From NCBI GenBank assembly GCA_964534925.1, contig CAZHQQ010000002.1, positions 1 through 25,694 on the forward strand: DNA of 25,694 nt. The letters run 5' to 3'. The notes under the pieces are model-generated. The model was not told the origin of the DNA. It worked only from the letters and a program-made list of their open reading frames with translations, and ran no database searches. How positions within the stretch are numbered: position 1 is the first letter of the stretch; every line of letters starts with the position of its first letter. The stretch comes from an uncultured Candidatus Saccharibacteria bacterium. GTDB lineage: Bacteria; Patescibacteriota; Minisyncoccia; Minisyncoccales; CAZBVF01. Positions 1 to 20,172 of the stretch are shown piece after piece. The position numbers and the translations under genes were made by a program.

Positions 1-77
1 AATCTATGCAGGGTCAAACCCTGATTTGAATCTATGCAGGGTCAAACCCTGATTTAAATCTATGCAGGGTCAAACCC
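1..77. repeat. Tandem 28-bp repeat (REP-like family A), ~2.75 copies, probably continuing upstream of the window
   Basis: Unit AATCTATGCAGGGTCAAACCCTGATTT(G/A) starts at 1, 29 and 57. Each unit holds the palindrome CAGGGT-CAA-ACCCTG (third copy truncated). There are no variable spacers. Confidence 0.95.
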
Positions 78-91
78 CGCAATAAGTAATT

Positions 92-126
92 TATGATTGG
101 TTGACACCAGGTGTCAACCGATTTTA
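92..126. repeat. REP-like palindrome family B, copy 1
   Basis: TATGATTGGTTGACACC-A-GGTGTCAACCGATTTTA with a perfect 10+1+10 core at 99-119. The same 35-bp unit recurs at 1882 and 2828, and the core alone at 3103. Confidence 0.95.
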
Positions 127-154
127 AGTTTTGTTTGCAGAATAAATATTTTTT

Positions 155-220
155 TTATGTCTTACAACTCATTTCGTATGGCAATCTATGTTGTTCGTAT
201 AACTTATTTTATCGGATAAC
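155..220 (+). repeat. Left inverted repeat of Fic module (IR-L1)
   Basis: Matches the reverse complement of 1444-1510 at 56/67 aligned columns (one gap, hand alignment). Confidence 0.9.
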
Positions 221-225
221 ATAAC

Positions 226-254
226 TTGACAAGAATTGATATTCCGATTAATAT
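226..254 (+). promoter_or_regulatory. Sigma70-type promoter of fic
   Basis: TTGACA (226-231), 17 bp, TAATAT (249-254). Confidence 0.65.
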
Positions 255-296
255 ATAAAAACAGAACAGTTTTTGATAACCGTTCTGGTTGTTAAT

Positions 297-1433
297 ATGA
301 TGCGTTCAGGAAAACACATAAATCAATTAAAAGGAGAGTTGACATATAAGGCATTTATCCCAAATTATCTGCCCTTTAGTCTTAAAAAAAACCCGGAAAT
401 AGATATTTTGTTATCTGAGGCTAATTTAAACTTAGGTAGATTAGATGGTATTTCGGATATAGTTCCGGATATAGACTTTCTTACATTGATATTTGGGAGA
501 AAAGAAGCAACTTTTTCTAGTCAGGTGGAAGGAACTCAGGCAACATTTGCAGACGTCTTAAAGGCAGAGGCAAAAGTTGAAGACAAGGATATCCCTGCCG
601 ATGTAAGAGAAATTTTCAACCATATTAGTGTAATGAATTATGGAATAAAGGAGTTAAAAAAAATTCCCTTATCTCTAAGACTTATACAAGGAATACATAA
701 AAGACTACTCAAAGGTGTAAGGGGTCAAGAAAGACAACCTGGGCAATTTAGAAAAACTCAAAATTGGGTAGGTGGACCAACAATTCAAACAGCGGCTTAT
801 GTCCCTGCTCCACCTCAAGAGATCCTATCTTTATTGGGAAATTTAGAAAATTTCTTGCATGACAAAAAACCCATTCCTCCATTAATTAAAGCTGCTTTAA
901 TCCATGCTCAATTTGAAAACATCCATCCTTTTCTAGATGGTAATGGGAGAATTGGTCGTCTTCTTGTAGCTTTTTACCTTTGGCATCAGAAAGTATTAAA
1001 ACACCCTATACTTTATTTATCTGTGTATTTCAAAAAAAATCAAAAAGATTACTATTATTGGTTGAATAATTTCCATGAAAAAGATGATATTGAAGGATGG
1101 ATAAAATTTTTTTTAAGGGGGGTAATCACAACCGCTAAAGAAGAGTTTGAAACAGCTCAAAAAGTTTTAGATTTAAAAGAAAAAGATACTCAAAAAATTA
1201 CAGCCGAACTTACTCGTGTTAGTAAGAATGGCCTAGTTCTTCTTAAAAACCTCTATAAAAATCCTTTTGTTTCGTTGAAAAGTGTAGTTTTATTTACTGG
1301 ATTAAGTAAATCAAATGCTCACTATTTACTTAAAAGAGTAGAAAAAACTGGCATATTAAAAGCTTTGCCCTCTAAGCCATATAGAACAAAAACTTACATT
1401 TATAAAGAATACATGGATTTATTGAATGCCTAA
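297..1433 (+). CDS. fic: Fic family protein (class II / SoFic-like AMPylase with N-terminal Fic_N region and probable C-terminal HTH)
   Basis: Canonical HPFLDGNGRIGR motif and N-terminal autoinhibitory (S/T)xxxE(G/N) motif SSQVEG. ATG at 297 (or 300) is preferred over the TTG at 273. Confidence 0.93.
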   Translation: MMRSGKHINQLKGELTYKAFIPNYLPFSLKKNPEIDILLSEANLNLGRLDGISDIVPDIDFLTLIFGRKEATFSSQVEGTQATFADVLKAEAKVEDKDIPADVREIFNHISVMNYGIKELKKIPLSLRLIQGIHKRLLKGVRGQERQPGQFRKTQNWVGGPTIQTAAYVPAPPQEILSLLGNLENFLHDKKPIPPLIKAALIHAQFENIHPFLDGNGRIGRLLVAFYLWHQKVLKHPILYLSVYFKKNQKDYYYWLNNFHEKDDIEGWIKFFLRGVITTAKEEFETAQKVLDLKEKDTQKITAELTRVSKNGLVLLKNLYKNPFVSLKSVVLFTGLSKSNAHYLLKRVEKTGILKALPSKPYRTKTYIYKEYMDLLNA

Positions 1434-1443
1434 TAATTATCTT

Positions 1444-1510
1444 GCTATCCGATAAGATAAGTTATAAGAACAAACACAGATTGTCATACAAGATGCGTCA
1501 TAAGACATAA
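1444..1510 (-). repeat. Right inverted repeat of Fic module (IR-R1)
   Basis: Reverse complement TTATGTCTTATGACGCATCTTGTATGACAATCTGTGTTTGTTCTTATAACTTATCTTATCGGATAGC is ~84% identical to 155-220. It starts 10 bp after the fic stop. Confidence 0.9.
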
Positions 1511-1664
1511 AGAATTATCTTTTTAATAATTTTTAGGTTGAACAAGTTTTATAATTTTTATTTCTAATGTCATAAAAAATTCGTGACTAAAAAAATTAGT
1601 TTTTCGTCTATTTTTCTCCAATCAAAAATTCTAAGTACGTCCTACAAAAGGAGGAAGAATTGCT

Positions 1665-1817
1665 GTGGAATATAATAATTCAGATTTTTTAATTGAAAAC
1701 ATCTTTTGTAACGGAGGAGAAATAGGAAACCTACCGGAAGAATATGACATATCGGATGCATTGGGAGAAAATGGGACCATCGTCATAAACGGAATAATTA
1801 CACAATCACCAGAGTAA
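1665..1817 (+). CDS. Small acidic hypothetical protein, 50 aa (not in ORF track)
   Basis: AAGGAGG at 1648-1654, GTG at 1665, TAA at 1815-1817. Translation MEYNNSDFLIENIFCNGGEIGNLPEEYDISDALGENGTIVINGIITQSPE has 10 D/E and no K/R/H. Confidence 0.55.
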   Translation: MEYNNSDFLIENIFCNGGEIGNLPEEYDISDALGENGTIVINGIITQSPE

Positions 1818-1827
1818 AACAAAAAAA

Positions 1828-1877
1828 TTAAATCAGGGTCAAACCCTGATTTAAATCTATGCAGGGTCAAACCCTGT
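1828..1877. repeat. REP-like family A, two copies at 28-bp period
   Basis: TTAAATCAGGGT-CAA-ACCCTGATTTAA (perfect 12-bp arms, 1828-1854) followed by CAGGGTCAAACCCTG (1862-1876). 1834-1874 is identical to 37-77. Confidence 0.95.
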
Positions 1878-1881
1878 AACA

Positions 1882-1916
1882 TATGATCGGTTGACACCTG
1901 GTGTCAACCGATTTTA
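1882..1916. repeat. REP-like palindrome family B, copy 2
   Basis: ATCGGTTGACACC-T-GGTGTCAACCGAT, perfect 13+1+13 (1886-1912). Confidence 0.95.
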
Positions 1917-2040
1917 TAATTATCTAGCCTGCCCGGAGAACAAATTGAGAAGCAAAAATTTTTAATTTATTTCCCATATAATATTATTATATCAAAAAAA
2001 CCGTCTGATTGGCGATTTTAATTCATTCAGTTTGTATTAA

Positions 2041-2093
2041 ATGTCTCACAACACATCTTGTCTGTCGTTCAATCTATGACGTGAGTCGCGAAA
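2041..2093 (+). repeat. Left inverted repeat of nuclease/sRNA module (IR-L2)
   Basis: First 32 nt match the reverse complement of 2726-2775 at 30/32, then a 4-nt indel, then 12/13. Its outer part is homologous to IR-L1 and IR-R1. Confidence 0.92.
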
Positions 2094-2110
2094 TTATTCA
2101 TCTAAGCTAA

Positions 2111-2154
2111 TGTGGATAAACCCCCTTGACACGTTCTGGAGATAGGGTTAAATT
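2111..2154 (+). promoter_or_regulatory. DnaA-box consensus plus sigma70-type promoter
   Basis: TGTGGATAA (reverse complement of TTATCCACA) at 2111-2119; TTGACA (2126-2131), 17 bp, TAAATT (2149-2154). Confidence 0.6.
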
Positions 2155-2160
2155 AAAAGT

Positions 2161-2222
2161 GCACCTGTGAGAGCTATGGCTCTCCCGCGGTCAATACATA
2201 AACTGCAGACGGGTGTTTTTTT
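2161..2222 (+). ncRNA. Candidate ~60-nt three-way-junction small RNA ending in a U-tract, convergent on the downstream gene
   Basis: P1 GCACCUGU(2161-68)/ACGGGUGU(2209-16); P2 GAGAGC-UAUG-GCUCUC(2169-84); P3 GCGGU(2187-91)/ACUGC(2202-06). A T-run follows, and the element starts 6 nt after the -10 box. It is a GC-rich island in AT-rich DNA. Confidence 0.6.
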
Positions 2223-2699
2223 TTAATCTTCTTCTAAGTTTCCAGAGAAAAATATTTTTTTCCTAAGAGAATTTTTAGTTGTTTTCCAAGAAGGGTATAG
2301 ACTATAAAAAATTTTGTTTCCACCTTCTATTTCTTTGATAATTATTTTTAATCTCACCTCCTTTATAATTGCGATAAAAACGTAATAGCGAACTAACTTT
2401 GCTCTTTTTTCCCAACGAGAATTGATGTTTTGTCTCACTAGCATCTTTCGTTCATCGTATTCTTGTAGAGTATGTGACCTAGTGATAATATCGGGAACTA
2501 AAGATATAAGTCTCAACCTTGTATGTTGCTCTAGGCTAGATCTACCCCTATTCCACGTTTTAAATAATATATGATCAAAACCTTCATTATTAAAAAAAAC
2601 CTCGTCCTTTAAACACGGACACCAAACTTTTCCAATTTTTTCATATATTTCTTTAGCTTTTTTCTTTGTCTCTTCTAATTTCTTTTCATCAATTTGCAT
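2223..2699 (-). CDS. Hypothetical protein, probable RelE/BECR-fold (PBECR-like) nuclease/toxin
   Basis: 158-aa basic ORF with an extended -10 (TGCTAAATT, 2714-2706) 6 nt before the ATG. The pattern VWCPCL..VFFNNEGFDH...R...EQ..RL...YYVF.A...LKIII...G.KIFYSLYP resembles BECR-type RNases by eye. The CDS is likely real; the fold call is tentative. Confidence 0.6.
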   Translation of the reverse strand: MQIDEKKLEETKKKAKEIYEKIGKVWCPCLKDEVFFNNEGFDHILFKTWNRGRSSLEQHTRLRLISLVPDIITRSHTLQEYDERKMLVRQNINSRWEKRAKLVRYYVFIAIIKEVRLKIIIKEIEGGNKIFYSLYPSWKTTKNSLRKKIFFSGNLEED

Positions 2700-2725
2700 T
2701 ATTTTAATTTAGCATAAAAATTACC

Positions 2726-2775
2726 TTTCAGCGACTCATGTCATTGAACGACAGACAAGATGTGTTGCGAGACGT
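2726..2775 (-). repeat. Right inverted repeat of nuclease/sRNA module (IR-R2)
   Basis: Reverse complement ACGTCTCGCAACACATCTTGTCTGTCGTTCAATGACATGAGTCGCTGAAA versus 2041-2093, including a 25-nt perfect run. It overlaps the predicted -35 position of the ORF promoter. Confidence 0.92.
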
Positions 2776-2827
2776 AAAAGAAAAAGCCCCGATGGATTCC
2801 AACGAGGCATTAAGAACTCCTACTATA

Positions 2828-2862
2828 TATGATTGGTTGACACCTGGTGTCAACCAATTTTA
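2828..2862. repeat. REP-like palindrome family B, copy 3
   Basis: ATTGGTTGACACC-T-GGTGTCAACCAAT, perfect 13+1+13 (2832-2858). Confidence 0.95.
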
Positions 2863-2869
2863 TTTGGAC

Positions 2870-3015
2870 AAAAAAAAGAGCGGGCAGATAGTATACTTAT
2901 GTATGCTTTGACTTGCCCGCTTTTATCATGAGTAGATTAGACTTCTGTTGTTTGGTTAAAACATGAAAAATGAGAATATCCGTGGAGACGCTTGTTTGAC
3001 AGAAGTCTAATCTAC
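2870..3015 (-). other. Double-hairpin structured element (possible ncRNA with terminator)
   Basis: Perfect 17-bp inverted repeat GTAGATTAGACTTCTGT (2932-2948)/ACAGAAGTCTAATCTAC (2999-3015). A second stem AGCGGGCA (2879-86)/TGCCCGCT (2914-21) is followed on the minus strand by T8 (A-run 2870-2877). Confidence 0.5.
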
Positions 3016-3099
3016 GAAAGAACTATTATGTAATAACATTACATCTTTAACTTAGTACCTTTTAAAAGTTTGTCAAGGGCTGAGGAAAAACTAAAGGAG

Positions 3100-3124
3100 A
3101 TCGGTTGACACCTGGTGTCAACCG
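3100..3124. repeat. REP-like palindrome family B, core-only copy 4
   Basis: CGGTTGACACC-T-GGTGTCAACCG (3102-3124). Confidence 0.92.
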
Positions 3125-3160
3125 GGAAGATTAATCGGGGTTTAATTTTATATAGGTATA

Positions 3161-3190
3161 TAAAAAAAATGCGGAGAAAAATCTCCGCAT
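3161..3190 (-). terminator. Rho-independent terminator of the minus-strand three-gene operon
   Basis: ATGCGGAGA-AAAA-TCTCCGCAT (3169-3190), followed on the minus strand by a T-run (A-run ending at 3169). Confidence 0.8.
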
Positions 3191-3223
3191 ATTTATGTAA
3201 AAATATTTTTTTACTTTTTACAT

Positions 3224-3775
3224 TTAGGCTATCATAAATTCCAAATCCTTCCATCCATAGATTCTCTTCCCGCGAATACATTCCTTATTATAGGGAGTGT
3301 CAAAAATAATTGTTTGACATTTTTTTCTGAGACTCTCTATGATCTCAGAATTACTTTCAATAATAGTATTTACTTTTTCTCGTCCAACAATTTTAAGCTT
3401 GCTTTCACATGCATGCCCCCTATTAATATAGTAAATCCTATCAAATGGAAGCTTGTTTCTCTCAAGAGATTGAATGGTTAATCTGTTCAATAAACTCGGT
3501 CTCGTTGTCCAATAAATCAGTTTATGATTACGTTTACCATTCCTTAAAGTGTTAAGAATTTTTTTAGCGTCATTCCTTGCTTTTAAATTTTTTAGAAAAC
3601 TTCTATTTCTAAACGCTTCCTTTAACCACATTCCTCTTTCTGTGGATAAATAAAATTTGTTTCCAACATTAAAAGAATACCAATCTATTTCTCCATCAAA
3701 CTCTTCATGAAATTTTATTTCTAAAAATTTACGAGTTGAGAATATTACTTCATCTAGATCTACTGCAATTGTAAT
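3224..3775 (-). CDS. HAD-superfamily 5'(3')-deoxyribonucleotidase-like (NT5C-type) protein; true start probably ATT at 3775, upstream of the tracked ATG at 3631
   Basis: The frame is open from 3790 to 3224. Motif I IAVDLDEV lies upstream of the first ATG; motif II region YWTTR; C-terminal IFDTPYN...RIYGW is typical of the family. GAGGAGG (3790-3784) sits 8 nt before ATT 3775. Confidence 0.75.
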   Translation of the reverse strand: MTIAVDLDEVIFSTRKFLEIKFHEEFDGEIDWYSFNVGNKFYLSTERGMWLKEAFRNRSFLKNLKARNDAKKILNTLRNGKRNHKLIYWTTRPSLLNRLTIQSLERNKLPFDRIYYINRGHACESKLKIVGREKVNTIIESNSEIIESLRKKCQTIIFDTPYNKECIRGKRIYGWKDLEFMIA

Positions 3776-14148: not shown

Positions 14149-15630
14149 ATGAAAAAATTGATAGTAGTCCCAATGATTCTGATAGTCTTATTTACGGCTA
14201 TAGTAGCTTGTGCTTACGAAAACCAGAGGATTGAAACCGAATTCGAAGGAATGTCTACCCAAATGGATGAAACCGCAATAATCTCAAACGATGTTTATAT
14301 CAAAAAACACGTTGCTAGACCTTGGTTTTTCTTAGTAGAGATAACCCTGAAAAACATCGGGAAAGAGGAAAAGGTTTTTGATTTTTGGAATGATTTAAAG
14401 TTTTATGCCCAGGACAGTGAAGGAGAAATCTACAAAAAGGTTGAGGTGTATACCGAAAAAAAAGTACTTAAAGATATCCACAAGCTTAAGCTTGGACCTG
14501 GTCAATCTCAAAAACTTTGGATTCATTTTCACGGAGTCCCAATGGAAATTAAAGGTTTGAGAGTTCTCTACGAAGACATTATCAAAAAAAAGCGAATCTT
14601 AATTACAATTATTGGGAAAGAATACTTTGAAGTTTTTGCTAAAACACAAAAGAATCCAAAAACTCCAGGAGAGGTATTGGCGACATTCTATCTGCTGACC
14701 AAAGAAGGAAGATATCAAGAAGCCGAAAAATTAGTATCTCTATCTTCTCTAGAAAATTACCGATTCAACCAATCAGCAATAAAGGAATTTATGACCACTG
14801 CCGAAAGAATAGATGTGATAAATGAAGATTTTCTTGAAGCTGACTATTGGAATATCACCGTAAAATTTCCGGATAATCCACGTGGATTTATTGGAGTTTA
14901 CAATTGTTTTGGAGAAGAGAGGCTCAATGAAATAAGCAGTGGAGGACCTATAAATGTTCCTATGGAAGTTGAAGGCGTAAGAAATCAAAGAGTTGAATTG
15001 ATAGCAATTAACGGAGAATATAAGGCAGGCGAAGAAGTAATGATTTCCTTCGCCATCAACTATGCAAACAATAAATACTCAGACTGCAATGCAAGACTTA
15101 CAAAGCAAAATAAACAATGGAAGATTGTATATGACAAAACGTTTGCTAGAACACCAAAAGATCCAAAGACTTTAGAAGAACTAACCGCAGCATTTTACTT
15201 TTTGACCAAAGAAGGAAAATATAAAGAAGTTGAAAAAATGATAACCCCAGAATGTGTAGAAGATTACCACTCGAGTTGGAAGAAAATAAAAGAATACATG
15301 GGATTGGTTCAAAGCATGGAGATAACGGACAAAAAGGTACTCCGGTTTGATTACTGGCATGTGAGTCTTTACTGCGTTAAAGATAAGACTAATAAGGATT
15401 GTTATGTAGGAAAAGACATAATGGAAAGAATAAAAAAAGGAGAGACGATAAGTCTTTATGACATGGGAACTCAAAAAGTAGAGTTACTATCAATTAATGA
15501 AGAATACAAAGCAAATAGCGAAGCGATCGTTTATTTTAAATTTAACCACTATGGAGGAGAAGACAATAAATCTAGAAGCCATCTTAAATTTATAAAAGAA
15601 AATAAAAGATGGAAAATAATAAGTGGTTAG
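14149..15630 (+). CDS. Secreted/surface protein with N-terminal DUF4352-like Ig domain and two ~165-aa internal repeats
   Basis: Signal peptide MKKLIVVPMILIVLFTAIVACA; AGGAGG SD at 14134-39. Repeats start FAKTQKNPKT (aa163) and FARTPKDPKT (aa332), sharing FY.LTKEG.Y.E.EK, DYW, Q.VEL..IN.EYKA and K.WKI. Confidence 0.8.
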   Translation: MKKLIVVPMILIVLFTAIVACAYENQRIETEFEGMSTQMDETAIISNDVYIKKHVARPWFFLVEITLKNIGKEEKVFDFWNDLKFYAQDSEGEIYKKVEVYTEKKVLKDIHKLKLGPGQSQKLWIHFHGVPMEIKGLRVLYEDIIKKKRILITIIGKEYFEVFAKTQKNPKTPGEVLATFYLLTKEGRYQEAEKLVSLSSLENYRFNQSAIKEFMTTAERIDVINEDFLEADYWNITVKFPDNPRGFIGVYNCFGEERLNEISSGGPINVPMEVEGVRNQRVELIAINGEYKAGEEVMISFAINYANNKYSDCNARLTKQNKQWKIVYDKTFARTPKDPKTLEELTAAFYFLTKEGKYKEVEKMITPECVEDYHSSWKKIKEYMGLVQSMEITDKKVLRFDYWHVSLYCVKDKTNKDCYVGKDIMERIKKGETISLYDMGTQKVELLSINEEYKANSEAIVYFKFNHYGGEDNKSRSHLKFIKENKRWKIISG

Positions 15631-20163: not shown

Positions 20164-20172
20164 TTATCCACA
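20164..20172 (+). promoter_or_regulatory. Perfect DnaA-box consensus upstream of nrdD
   Basis: TTATCCACA in the ftsZ-nrdD intergenic region. Confidence 0.5.

Follow-up and report, generated by a model that had tools for sequence, protein, structure and literature searches.

Several described systems pair a protein with a small RNA and lie close to the locus studied here. In type III toxin–antitoxin systems (ToxIN, CptIN, TenpIN), found in defense and mobile contexts, an endoribonuclease of the ToxN, AbiQ, CptN or TenpN type is paired with a structured noncoding RNA and no protein antitoxin; the RNA is a tandem repeat array encoded upstream of the protein on the same strand, with one promoter for both and a terminator between them. 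Type I loci with a convergent 3′ overlap, such as par/fst RNA I–RNA II of pAD1 and bsrG/SR4 and txpA/RatA of Bacillus subtilis, encode a small hydrophobic toxin (less than about 60 aa). The abiF and DUF3800 motifs of Rfam are conserved structured RNAs located in 5′ leaders and proposed to act as RNA antitoxins. LPD3 (PF18798), finally, is a domain of phage and conjugative polyvalent proteins. We analyzed a 25,694-nucleotide stretch of DNA, hereafter the window (contig CAZHQQ010000002.1 of assembly GCA_964534925.1), from an uncultured Candidatus Saccharibacteria bacterium, in which a predicted small RNA with a three-way-junction fold ends against the stop codon of a convergent gene for a 158-aa LPD3-like protein. 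An earlier interpretation made without database searches (the sequence-only reading) had proposed the pair as a candidate RNA-antitoxin system with a BECR/RelE-like toxin. Our comparisons indicate that the element is a genuine RNA gene inherited together with the protein gene, and we tentatively read the two as a toxin–antitoxin-like module.

Like a type III system, the locus combines a protein with a structured noncoding RNA and lacks a protein antitoxin, it occurs in defense and mobile contexts, and the RNA is presumed, here from sequence comparison, to act by binding the protein. Unlike in type III systems, the RNA is a single three-way junction (Tandem Repeats Finder found no tandem repeats at 1800–3200), it is transcribed convergently with the gene from a separate promoter, and the protein is LPD3-like. 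The sequence-only reading had likened the pair to type III, and the pairing of a protein with a structured RNA stands; with no tandem repeats, a separate convergent promoter and no ToxN-like toxin, however, this is not a type III system. Tail-to-tail transcription of an mRNA and a small RNA, with a common or adjoining terminator, is also a trait of the convergent type I loci, but the protein here is a 158-aa alpha/beta protein and not a small hydrophobic peptide, and the RNA core, outside the coding sequence, is conserved in its structure. We do not read the locus as a type I system. Complementarity specific to the cognate mRNA was not detected in the start region (–45 to +21), where duplexes with the cognate RNA were no better than noncognate ones (p = 0.24), while an overlap with the 3′ untranslated region is possible. 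As with the abiF and DUF3800 motifs, a conserved structured RNA is tied to one conflict-associated protein family; in contrast to them, the RNA is convergent, has its own promoter instead of residing in a 5′ leader, accompanies another protein family and has no match in Rfam. The LPD3 model of the polyvalent proteins matched above its cut-off and their predicted folds were the nearest found, but the protein studied here stands alone at about 160 aa, is encoded on bacterial chromosomes and always occurs with a cognate RNA gene. By analogy, its mode of action would be nearest to that of a type III pair or of the abiF and DUF3800 RNA–gene pairs, without membership in either.

To compare the locus across genomes, we used two sets. 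The protein-first set consisted of 77 loci from species-representative genomes encoding homologs of the 158-aa protein (identities 37–99%), and 72 of these were used to build an alignment and a covariance model. The RNA-first set was independent of it and consisted of 120 loci retrieved from metagenome contigs by means of a DNA pattern describing the RNA. In almost all of the 77 loci, a stretch of ~56 nt resembling the window junction was present just past the stop codon, even at protein identities of 37–45%, and the covariance model located the RNA element in 73 of them, every time on the strand opposite the gene. The four loci without a confident match were L037 and L053, cut off by the contig end, L062, which has a truncated gene, and L077, where a homolog of 29% identity is accompanied by only a weak 11-bit match. 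Within the helices of the 72-sequence alignment, 97.8% of the cells formed standard pairs, compared with at most 52% when the partners were slid, and 12 of the 19 pairs (132 cells) showed compensatory changes on both sides; RNAalifold, given no structure, predicted the identical junction. The RNA-first set behaved similarly, with 98.6% of cells paired and changes on both sides in 11 of the 19 pairs. The structured RNA with covariation was thus found in at least 190 loci in total, and two expectations of the sequence-only reading, a promoter-driven structured RNA convergent with the open reading frame (ORF) and a covarying antisense structure past the stop codons of its homologs, were borne out.

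A distant protein clade, the relatives of P0246, carries a diverged form of the junction with different helix sequences. Some of its loci lie on GC-rich contigs, and on one of these a gene for an outer-membrane beta-barrel protein is also present. The RNA lies directly 3′ of the stop codon in L204 and L206, while L205 has a weak match (13.9 bits) about 1.1 kb away and beyond an intervening gene. Rfam 15 gave no match anywhere in the window at gathering scores; even at E ≤ 10, a search of positions 2000–2800 returned only two weak minus-strand matches (a snoRNA model and IS009), neither of them on the RNA element, and a relationship to the abiF or DUF3800 motifs, raised in the sequence-only reading, found no backing. 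A search of IMG/VR with the RNA pattern matched one contig and no more, and a literature search found no prior description of this RNA. Given the comparative data, namely the junction past the stop codon in 73 of 77 loci, the pairing and the compensatory changes, we take the element to be a real and previously uncatalogued structured RNA gene. By the same kind of evidence, RNA and protein gene are co-inherited across Patescibacteria and at least one more distant, GC-rich clade.

The alignment was informative also about the strand and the extent of the transcript. On the strand opposite the gene, the helices contained 156 G·U cells and only 5 A·C cells, the latter being those that would be G·U if the gene strand carried the structure; selection has therefore acted on the structure on the strand opposite the gene. 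A TTGAC[ATG] hexamer was the best –35 box in 49 of the 72 loci, a TATAAT-like –10 box ended ~9–13 nt 5′ of the first helix, P1, in the protein-first loci, and the boxes had matching positions in the RNA-first set. From the position of the –10 box, transcription should begin at P1 or a few bases upstream. A T-run follows straight after P1 in 26 of the 72 loci, the layout seen in the window, and in 34 others an added GC hairpin with a T-run is found on the RNA strand, giving a recognizable terminator in 60 loci in all. With its own promoter and terminator, the RNA is predicted to be an independent transcription unit that in most loci ends just short of the convergent coding sequence. In contrast to this strong dedicated promoter, no conserved promoter was found for the protein gene. 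The sequence-only reading had called the tail-to-tail layout unusual; it is not peculiar to this locus and is invariant across the whole family.

In the window itself, the covariance model detected a single copy at 2159–2230 (73.5 bits). The promoter (TTGACA–17–TAAATT), the 56-nt junction and the T-run leading into the TAA of the 158-aa ORF were all confirmed in position and fold (Table 1), and the ORF listing of the window verified that no plus-strand ORF lies downstream of the promoter. The junction is the minimum-free-energy fold (–24.1 kcal/mol, z = –3.1), with one of 200 shuffled sequences equally stable, and it is thus only moderately unusual on single-sequence grounds; the gene-strand fold of the same region is weaker (–19.9 kcal/mol). 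The promoter is not significant by itself, with 14 promoter-like sites in 2 kb where 9.0 ± 2.8 are expected, and the case therefore rests on the comparison with other loci, which raises the feature well beyond chance. An A-run precedes P1 on the plus strand, and the final two T of the T-run are the complement of the AA in the TAA stop codon (2223–2225). The predicted small RNA would be ~62–65 nt long, from about 2158/2161 to about 2222 on the plus strand. The mRNA of the convergent ORF must traverse the RNA region before reaching a T-rich stretch.

Table 1. Features of the RNA–protein locus. Positions are those of the window, except in the last row, which concerns the loci named there.
Feature	Position	Strand	Remarks
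DnaA-box-like 9-mer TTATCCACA (plus-strand reading TGTGGATAA)	2111–2119	–	exact match; 6 nt upstream of the –35 box
–35 box TTGACA and –10 box TAAATT, 17-nt spacer	2126–2131, 2149–2154	+	sigma-70-type; 10/12 consensus matches
Three-way-junction RNA core	2161–2216	+	56 nt, GC-rich; from fold and covariation
P1	2161–2168/2209–2216	+	8 bp, including G·U pairs
P2	2169–2174/2179–2184	+	6 bp; loop UAUG at 2175–2178
P3	2187–2191/2202–2206	+	5 bp; 10-nt loop
Run of 9 T	2216–2224	+	with P1, predicted intrinsic terminator of the small RNA
Gene for 158-aa stand-alone LPD3-like protein	2223–2699	–	from ORF listing, Pfam, homologs and structure prediction
Inverted repeat, left arm	2031–2089		2031–2073 pairs with 2743–2785, 86% complementary
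Inverted repeat, right arm	2731–2785		pairs with left arm
LPD3-like gene in hsdM–hsdS loci L033, L034, L035, L039 and L043	4001–44xx, or 893–1375 and 1701–2093		

The sole Pfam match of the 158-aa protein was LPD3 (29.0 bits against a gathering cut-off of 27, E = 1.3e-6), spanning positions 2–113 of the 114 in the profile, and many of the homologs carry a precomputed PF18798 annotation. The AlphaFold2 model (pLDDT 83, pTM 0.76) shows an alpha/beta protein with N-terminal helices followed by a four-strand meander, and the top three matches among predicted viral structures (BFVD) were LPD3 phage polyvalent proteins with probabilities of 1.00, 0.99 and 0.89. The BECR/RelE identity suggested by the sequence-only reading had to be given up: Pfam returned no RelE, ParE, YoeB or HigB match at E ≤ 1, no such toxin was among the 50 best Foldseek matches shown for the Protein Data Bank (PDB), and the protein is LPD3-like and not demonstrably BECR/RelE. 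The 104 close homologs are all ~160 aa long and all from Patescibacteria, and a profile search (E ≤ 1e-3) extended the family to at least 1,219 clusters at 50% identity; among the best 150 of these, nearly all proteins stand alone, with lengths up to ~220 aa. Many polar or basic residues are invariant, including H43, R53, R61, Q79, R116, K118 and K122. Searches by tblastn gave no match in annotated plasmid and phage collections with the window protein, nor in annotated plasmids with a distant homolog.

The RNA-first loci allowed the linkage to be assessed from the other side. An adjacent convergent LPD3-like ORF was present in 100 of the 120, 6 had no room for one before the contig end and 14 had none, placing the gene beside the RNA in 88% of the 114 assessable loci. 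An intact and assessable protein gene without the RNA was never seen. The convergent ORFs tested with Pfam at the gene-less RNA loci encode a Gp49/HigB-like toxin with a helix-turn-helix protein, a PemK/MazF-like toxin, or TIR, NYN or NUDIX proteins. Nearly all loci have one copy of the RNA. At L155, there are two convergent copies about 113 nt apart, at 1888–1962 on the plus strand (63.9 bits) and at 2076–2145 on the minus strand (37.2 bits), and no LPD3-like gene lies between or near them.

When all neighboring ORFs were clustered, no conserved neighboring protein emerged: the most widespread family was present in 9 of 72 loci, which leaves no candidate for a protein antitoxin and agrees with what the sequence-only reading had stated for the window. 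In five loci (L033, L034, L035, L039 and L043), the module lies between hsdM and hsdS of a type I restriction–modification system. This placement resembles that of anticodon nucleases such as PrrC, which sit embedded in type I restriction–modification loci. Other shared neighbors, identified by Pfam or from their sequence, include DNA methylases, Fic/RhuM, DnaK, an ABC-type protein and a ComM-like protein, and some loci have serine recombinases nearby or are inserted between grpE and dnaK. These surroundings support a genomic context of defense and toxin–antitoxin islands.

Upstream of the promoter lies a 9-mer resembling a DnaA box. Among the protein-first loci (537 kb), 25 of the 51 exact occurrences of TTATCCACA were within 100 nt of this promoter-upstream position, and with at most one mismatch the 9-mer was found there in 42 of 72 loci. 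The 105 distinct upstream regions of the RNA-first set contained it exactly in 37 cases and with at most one mismatch in 60, compared with 6 and 15 of 315 control windows, an enrichment of about 12- to 18-fold. The box may have either orientation and usually starts 10–17 nt before the –35 box, and in a few loci it falls inside the spacer; at L204, of the distant clade, TGTGGATAA adjoins the RNA. Genes of the nrd family are DnaA-regulated in Escherichia coli, which, given a copy of the 9-mer upstream of nrdD in the window, makes it plausible that the 9-mer is a true, if putative, DnaA box. The window contains exactly two further copies of TTATCCACA. One (20164–20172) lies between ftsZ and nrdD, some 150 nt upstream of the latter, and the other, at 3641–3649, is 10 nt 5′ of an ORF weakly similar to NT5C 5′-nucleotidases (Pfam E = 0.0015, below the curated cut-off). 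Their positions hint that nucleotide-pool genes of this organism may form a DnaA regulon. A link of the module to oriC or dnaA, prompted by the box, was rejected, as the surroundings differ from locus to locus and no dnaA gene was noticed in the vicinity.

We favor a reading in which the LPD3-like protein and the structured RNA form a toxin–antitoxin-like partner module with the RNA restraining the protein, though we would put its chances slightly short of even. The RNA would act by its shape, binding the protein as its dedicated partner instead of pairing with the mRNA, and would most likely restrain a harmful or defense-related activity of the protein in the manner of an RNA antitoxin or immunity RNA; a drop in the RNA supply would then release the protein. 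DnaA, bound at the 9-mer beside the –35 box, could tune this supply and so couple the module to the replication state. A folded RNA recognized by a protein is favored by the conserved structure, the lack of complementarity to the mRNA start and the terminator before the coding sequence, and the LPD3-like protein is the probable recognizer because it is the sole co-inherited candidate. The toxin–antitoxin-like character is suggested by the asymmetry of the orphans, the defense-island context and the strong promoter of the RNA where none is conserved for the gene; orphan RNAs in the face of no orphan protein gene are the pattern of toxin–antitoxin pairs.

Several observations weigh against this reading. 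Of the 114 assessable RNA-first loci, 14 lack a neighboring LPD3-like gene, and promoter-like sequence precedes the RNA in the 11 of these that were inspected; the RNA may therefore serve some function independent of the protein. No terminator can be seen ahead of the gene in 12 of the 72 loci, and the RNA could there run antisense into the coding sequence; the claim of the sequence-only reading that the RNA acts by structure without overlapping the coding sequence accordingly fits most loci, and the lack of complementarity to the mRNA start, but is uncertain for these. The DnaA box would suit a housekeeping, replication-linked RNA equally well as a defense module. The predicted fold of the protein resembles no solved structure: Foldseek found no significant match in the PDB (best E = 0.84, none at E ≤ 0.001) and a profile search of PDB sequences none at E ≤ 10, results that also speak against a BECR/RelE fold, and PADLOC, NCBIfam and PHROGs gave no match. 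The paper naming LPD3 assigns the domain no function, does not include it among the LPD domains flagged as potentially enzymatic and describes no RNA partner for it (Iyer et al. 2017, PMC5512222). A literature search likewise found no function for LPD3.

The same linkage could arise from an obligate ribonucleoprotein, in which the LPD3-like protein depends for its activity on the RNA as a cofactor or scaffold, as in Ro–Y RNA or effector–guide complexes, with no inhibition involved and no toxicity required. A protein gene never seen without its RNA, the conserved structure and the RNA's own strong promoter would all be expected; yet a cofactor is useless without its protein, and the gene-less loci keep the RNA, those inspected even with promoter-like sequences upstream. 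The loop of P3, the sole variable part of the RNA, is furthermore too conserved within clades for a programmable guide, and an idea of a guide RNA or bridge RNA was set aside for this reason. We consider the ribonucleoprotein unlikely. The orphan RNAs with upstream promoter-like sequences are accommodated if the RNA is an independent small RNA of a DnaA regulon with its own cellular role and the LPD3-like gene a frequent neighbor, for example, cargo integrating beside it. The DnaA box at the promoter, the further boxes at nrdD and at the gene weakly similar to NT5C nucleotidases, and the locus with two RNA copies and no gene also point in this direction. The pair, however, is found in many unrelated contexts, including type I restriction–modification operons, grpE–dnaK and the vicinity of recombinases, so the RNA appears to move with the gene and not to be a fixed chromosomal landmark, and hitchhiking hardly explains an adjacency of 88% and an invariant convergent geometry over protein identities of 37–99%. 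We consider an independent RNA rather improbable.

The convergent layout itself invites a cis-antisense explanation of the type I kind, in which RNA and mRNA have overlapping 3′ ends or overlap within a common bidirectional terminator, and a duplex, or the collision of polymerases, lowers the expression of the gene. In the window, the mRNA would indeed have to read through the RNA region, the antisense strand of which still folds, and the loci with no visible RNA terminator would permit an overlap. In the 60 loci with a terminator, the RNA is nevertheless stopped before the coding sequence, and pairing requires neither a conserved three-way junction nor one whose G·U pairs are specific to one strand; the lack of complementarity to the translation start region and a protein that is soluble and 158 aa long, not a small membrane peptide, make this explanation more remote still, and we give it a low probability. 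The possibility that the element is only a structured bidirectional terminator with no functional RNA product, also raised by the sequence-only reading, is drawn from the resemblance of P1 and the T-run, with the A-run before them on the plus strand, to such a terminator. We regard it as highly improbable: conserved copies of the promoter and the DnaA box recur at a constant distance, a canonical terminator distinct from the junction is present in 34 of 72 loci, covariation maintains P2 and P3, which a terminator could dispense with, and orphan copies of the RNA occur without any convergent gene.

Returning to the module in which the RNA restrains the protein, a bolder version, possible but doubtful in our view, is that of a new and widespread protein–RNA conflict module, an LPD3-like effector checked by a single-copy three-way-junction RNA with a DnaA-controlled promoter. 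If true, it would be a new type of RNA antitoxin, one that reads the replication-initiation state of the cell, and would provide a first clue to what LPD3 does in the polyvalent proteins of phages and conjugative elements, a domain with no assigned function since its naming in 2017. A structured RNA family absent from Rfam 15 is in any case now tied to LPD3-like proteins. Were the RNA to neutralize the protein, the pair would represent a new architecture for the RNA-based control of a conflict protein, contained in a unit of only ~0.7 kb; it would occur in Patescibacteria, with their reduced genomes and often within restriction–modification operons, and in at least one other lineage. For a module of this kind, regulation through a conserved DnaA box would be unusual.

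The sequence-only reading had placed both parts inside one module bounded by an inverted repeat. The repeat is present in the window (Table 1) but is lineage-specific and not a general feature: among ~66 assessable loci, flanking inverted repeats were found only in the window and in its closest relative, L001, and the two repeat sequences are unrelated. The repeat was for this reason ruled out as a part of the module and is better seen as a local cassette or mobility feature outside its core. In L001, it is 63 nt long and 97% complementary (2171–2233/2840–2902) and contains a TTGACA-type promoter-like sequence; it abuts a candidate minus-strand tRNA gene at about 2907–2985, as judged by eye.

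A four-arm alignment showed that the arms around the LPD3 module are homologous to those around the neighboring Fic gene, at 151–221 and 1443–1514. This gene, ORF 273–1433 on the plus strand and upstream of the module, encodes a SoFic-type Fic/DOC protein (PADLOC E = 5.7e-112; Pfam Fic and Fic_N). Its inverted repeat is ~70 nt long, with the outer ~35 nt homologous to the repeat of the LPD3 module and sharing ATGTCTYACAAC.CAT.... On this sequence similarity, the shared arms suggest a family of passenger cassettes flanked by terminal inverted repeats.

More broadly, positions 1–3200 of the window have the appearance of a cassette array in which every unit between palindromes has an inverted repeat of its own around it. 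Copies of the palindrome GGTTGACACC(W)GGTGTCAACC are located at 99, 1889, 2835 and 3103, those at 1889 and 2835 being called terminator-like, and CAGGGTCAAACCCTG hairpins are found at 9, 37, 1834 and 1862. Between two copies of the palindrome, at 2933–3015, a perfect 17-nt inverted repeat (GTAGATTAGACTTCTGT / ACAGAAGTCTAATCTAC) surrounds ~49 nt with no ORF; this unit may represent either a cassette without a passenger or a further small RNA. On the 3′ side of the Fic cassette, a 50-aa acidic ORF (1665–1817, plus strand) with a strong Shine–Dalgarno sequence, AAAGGAGG, and no Pfam or PADLOC match could encode a small partner protein of Fic. Farther away, ORF 14149..15630 on the plus strand, which has no Pfam match, contains a 127-nt direct repeat of 72% identity (14635–14761/15142–15268), probably an internal repeat of the encoded protein.

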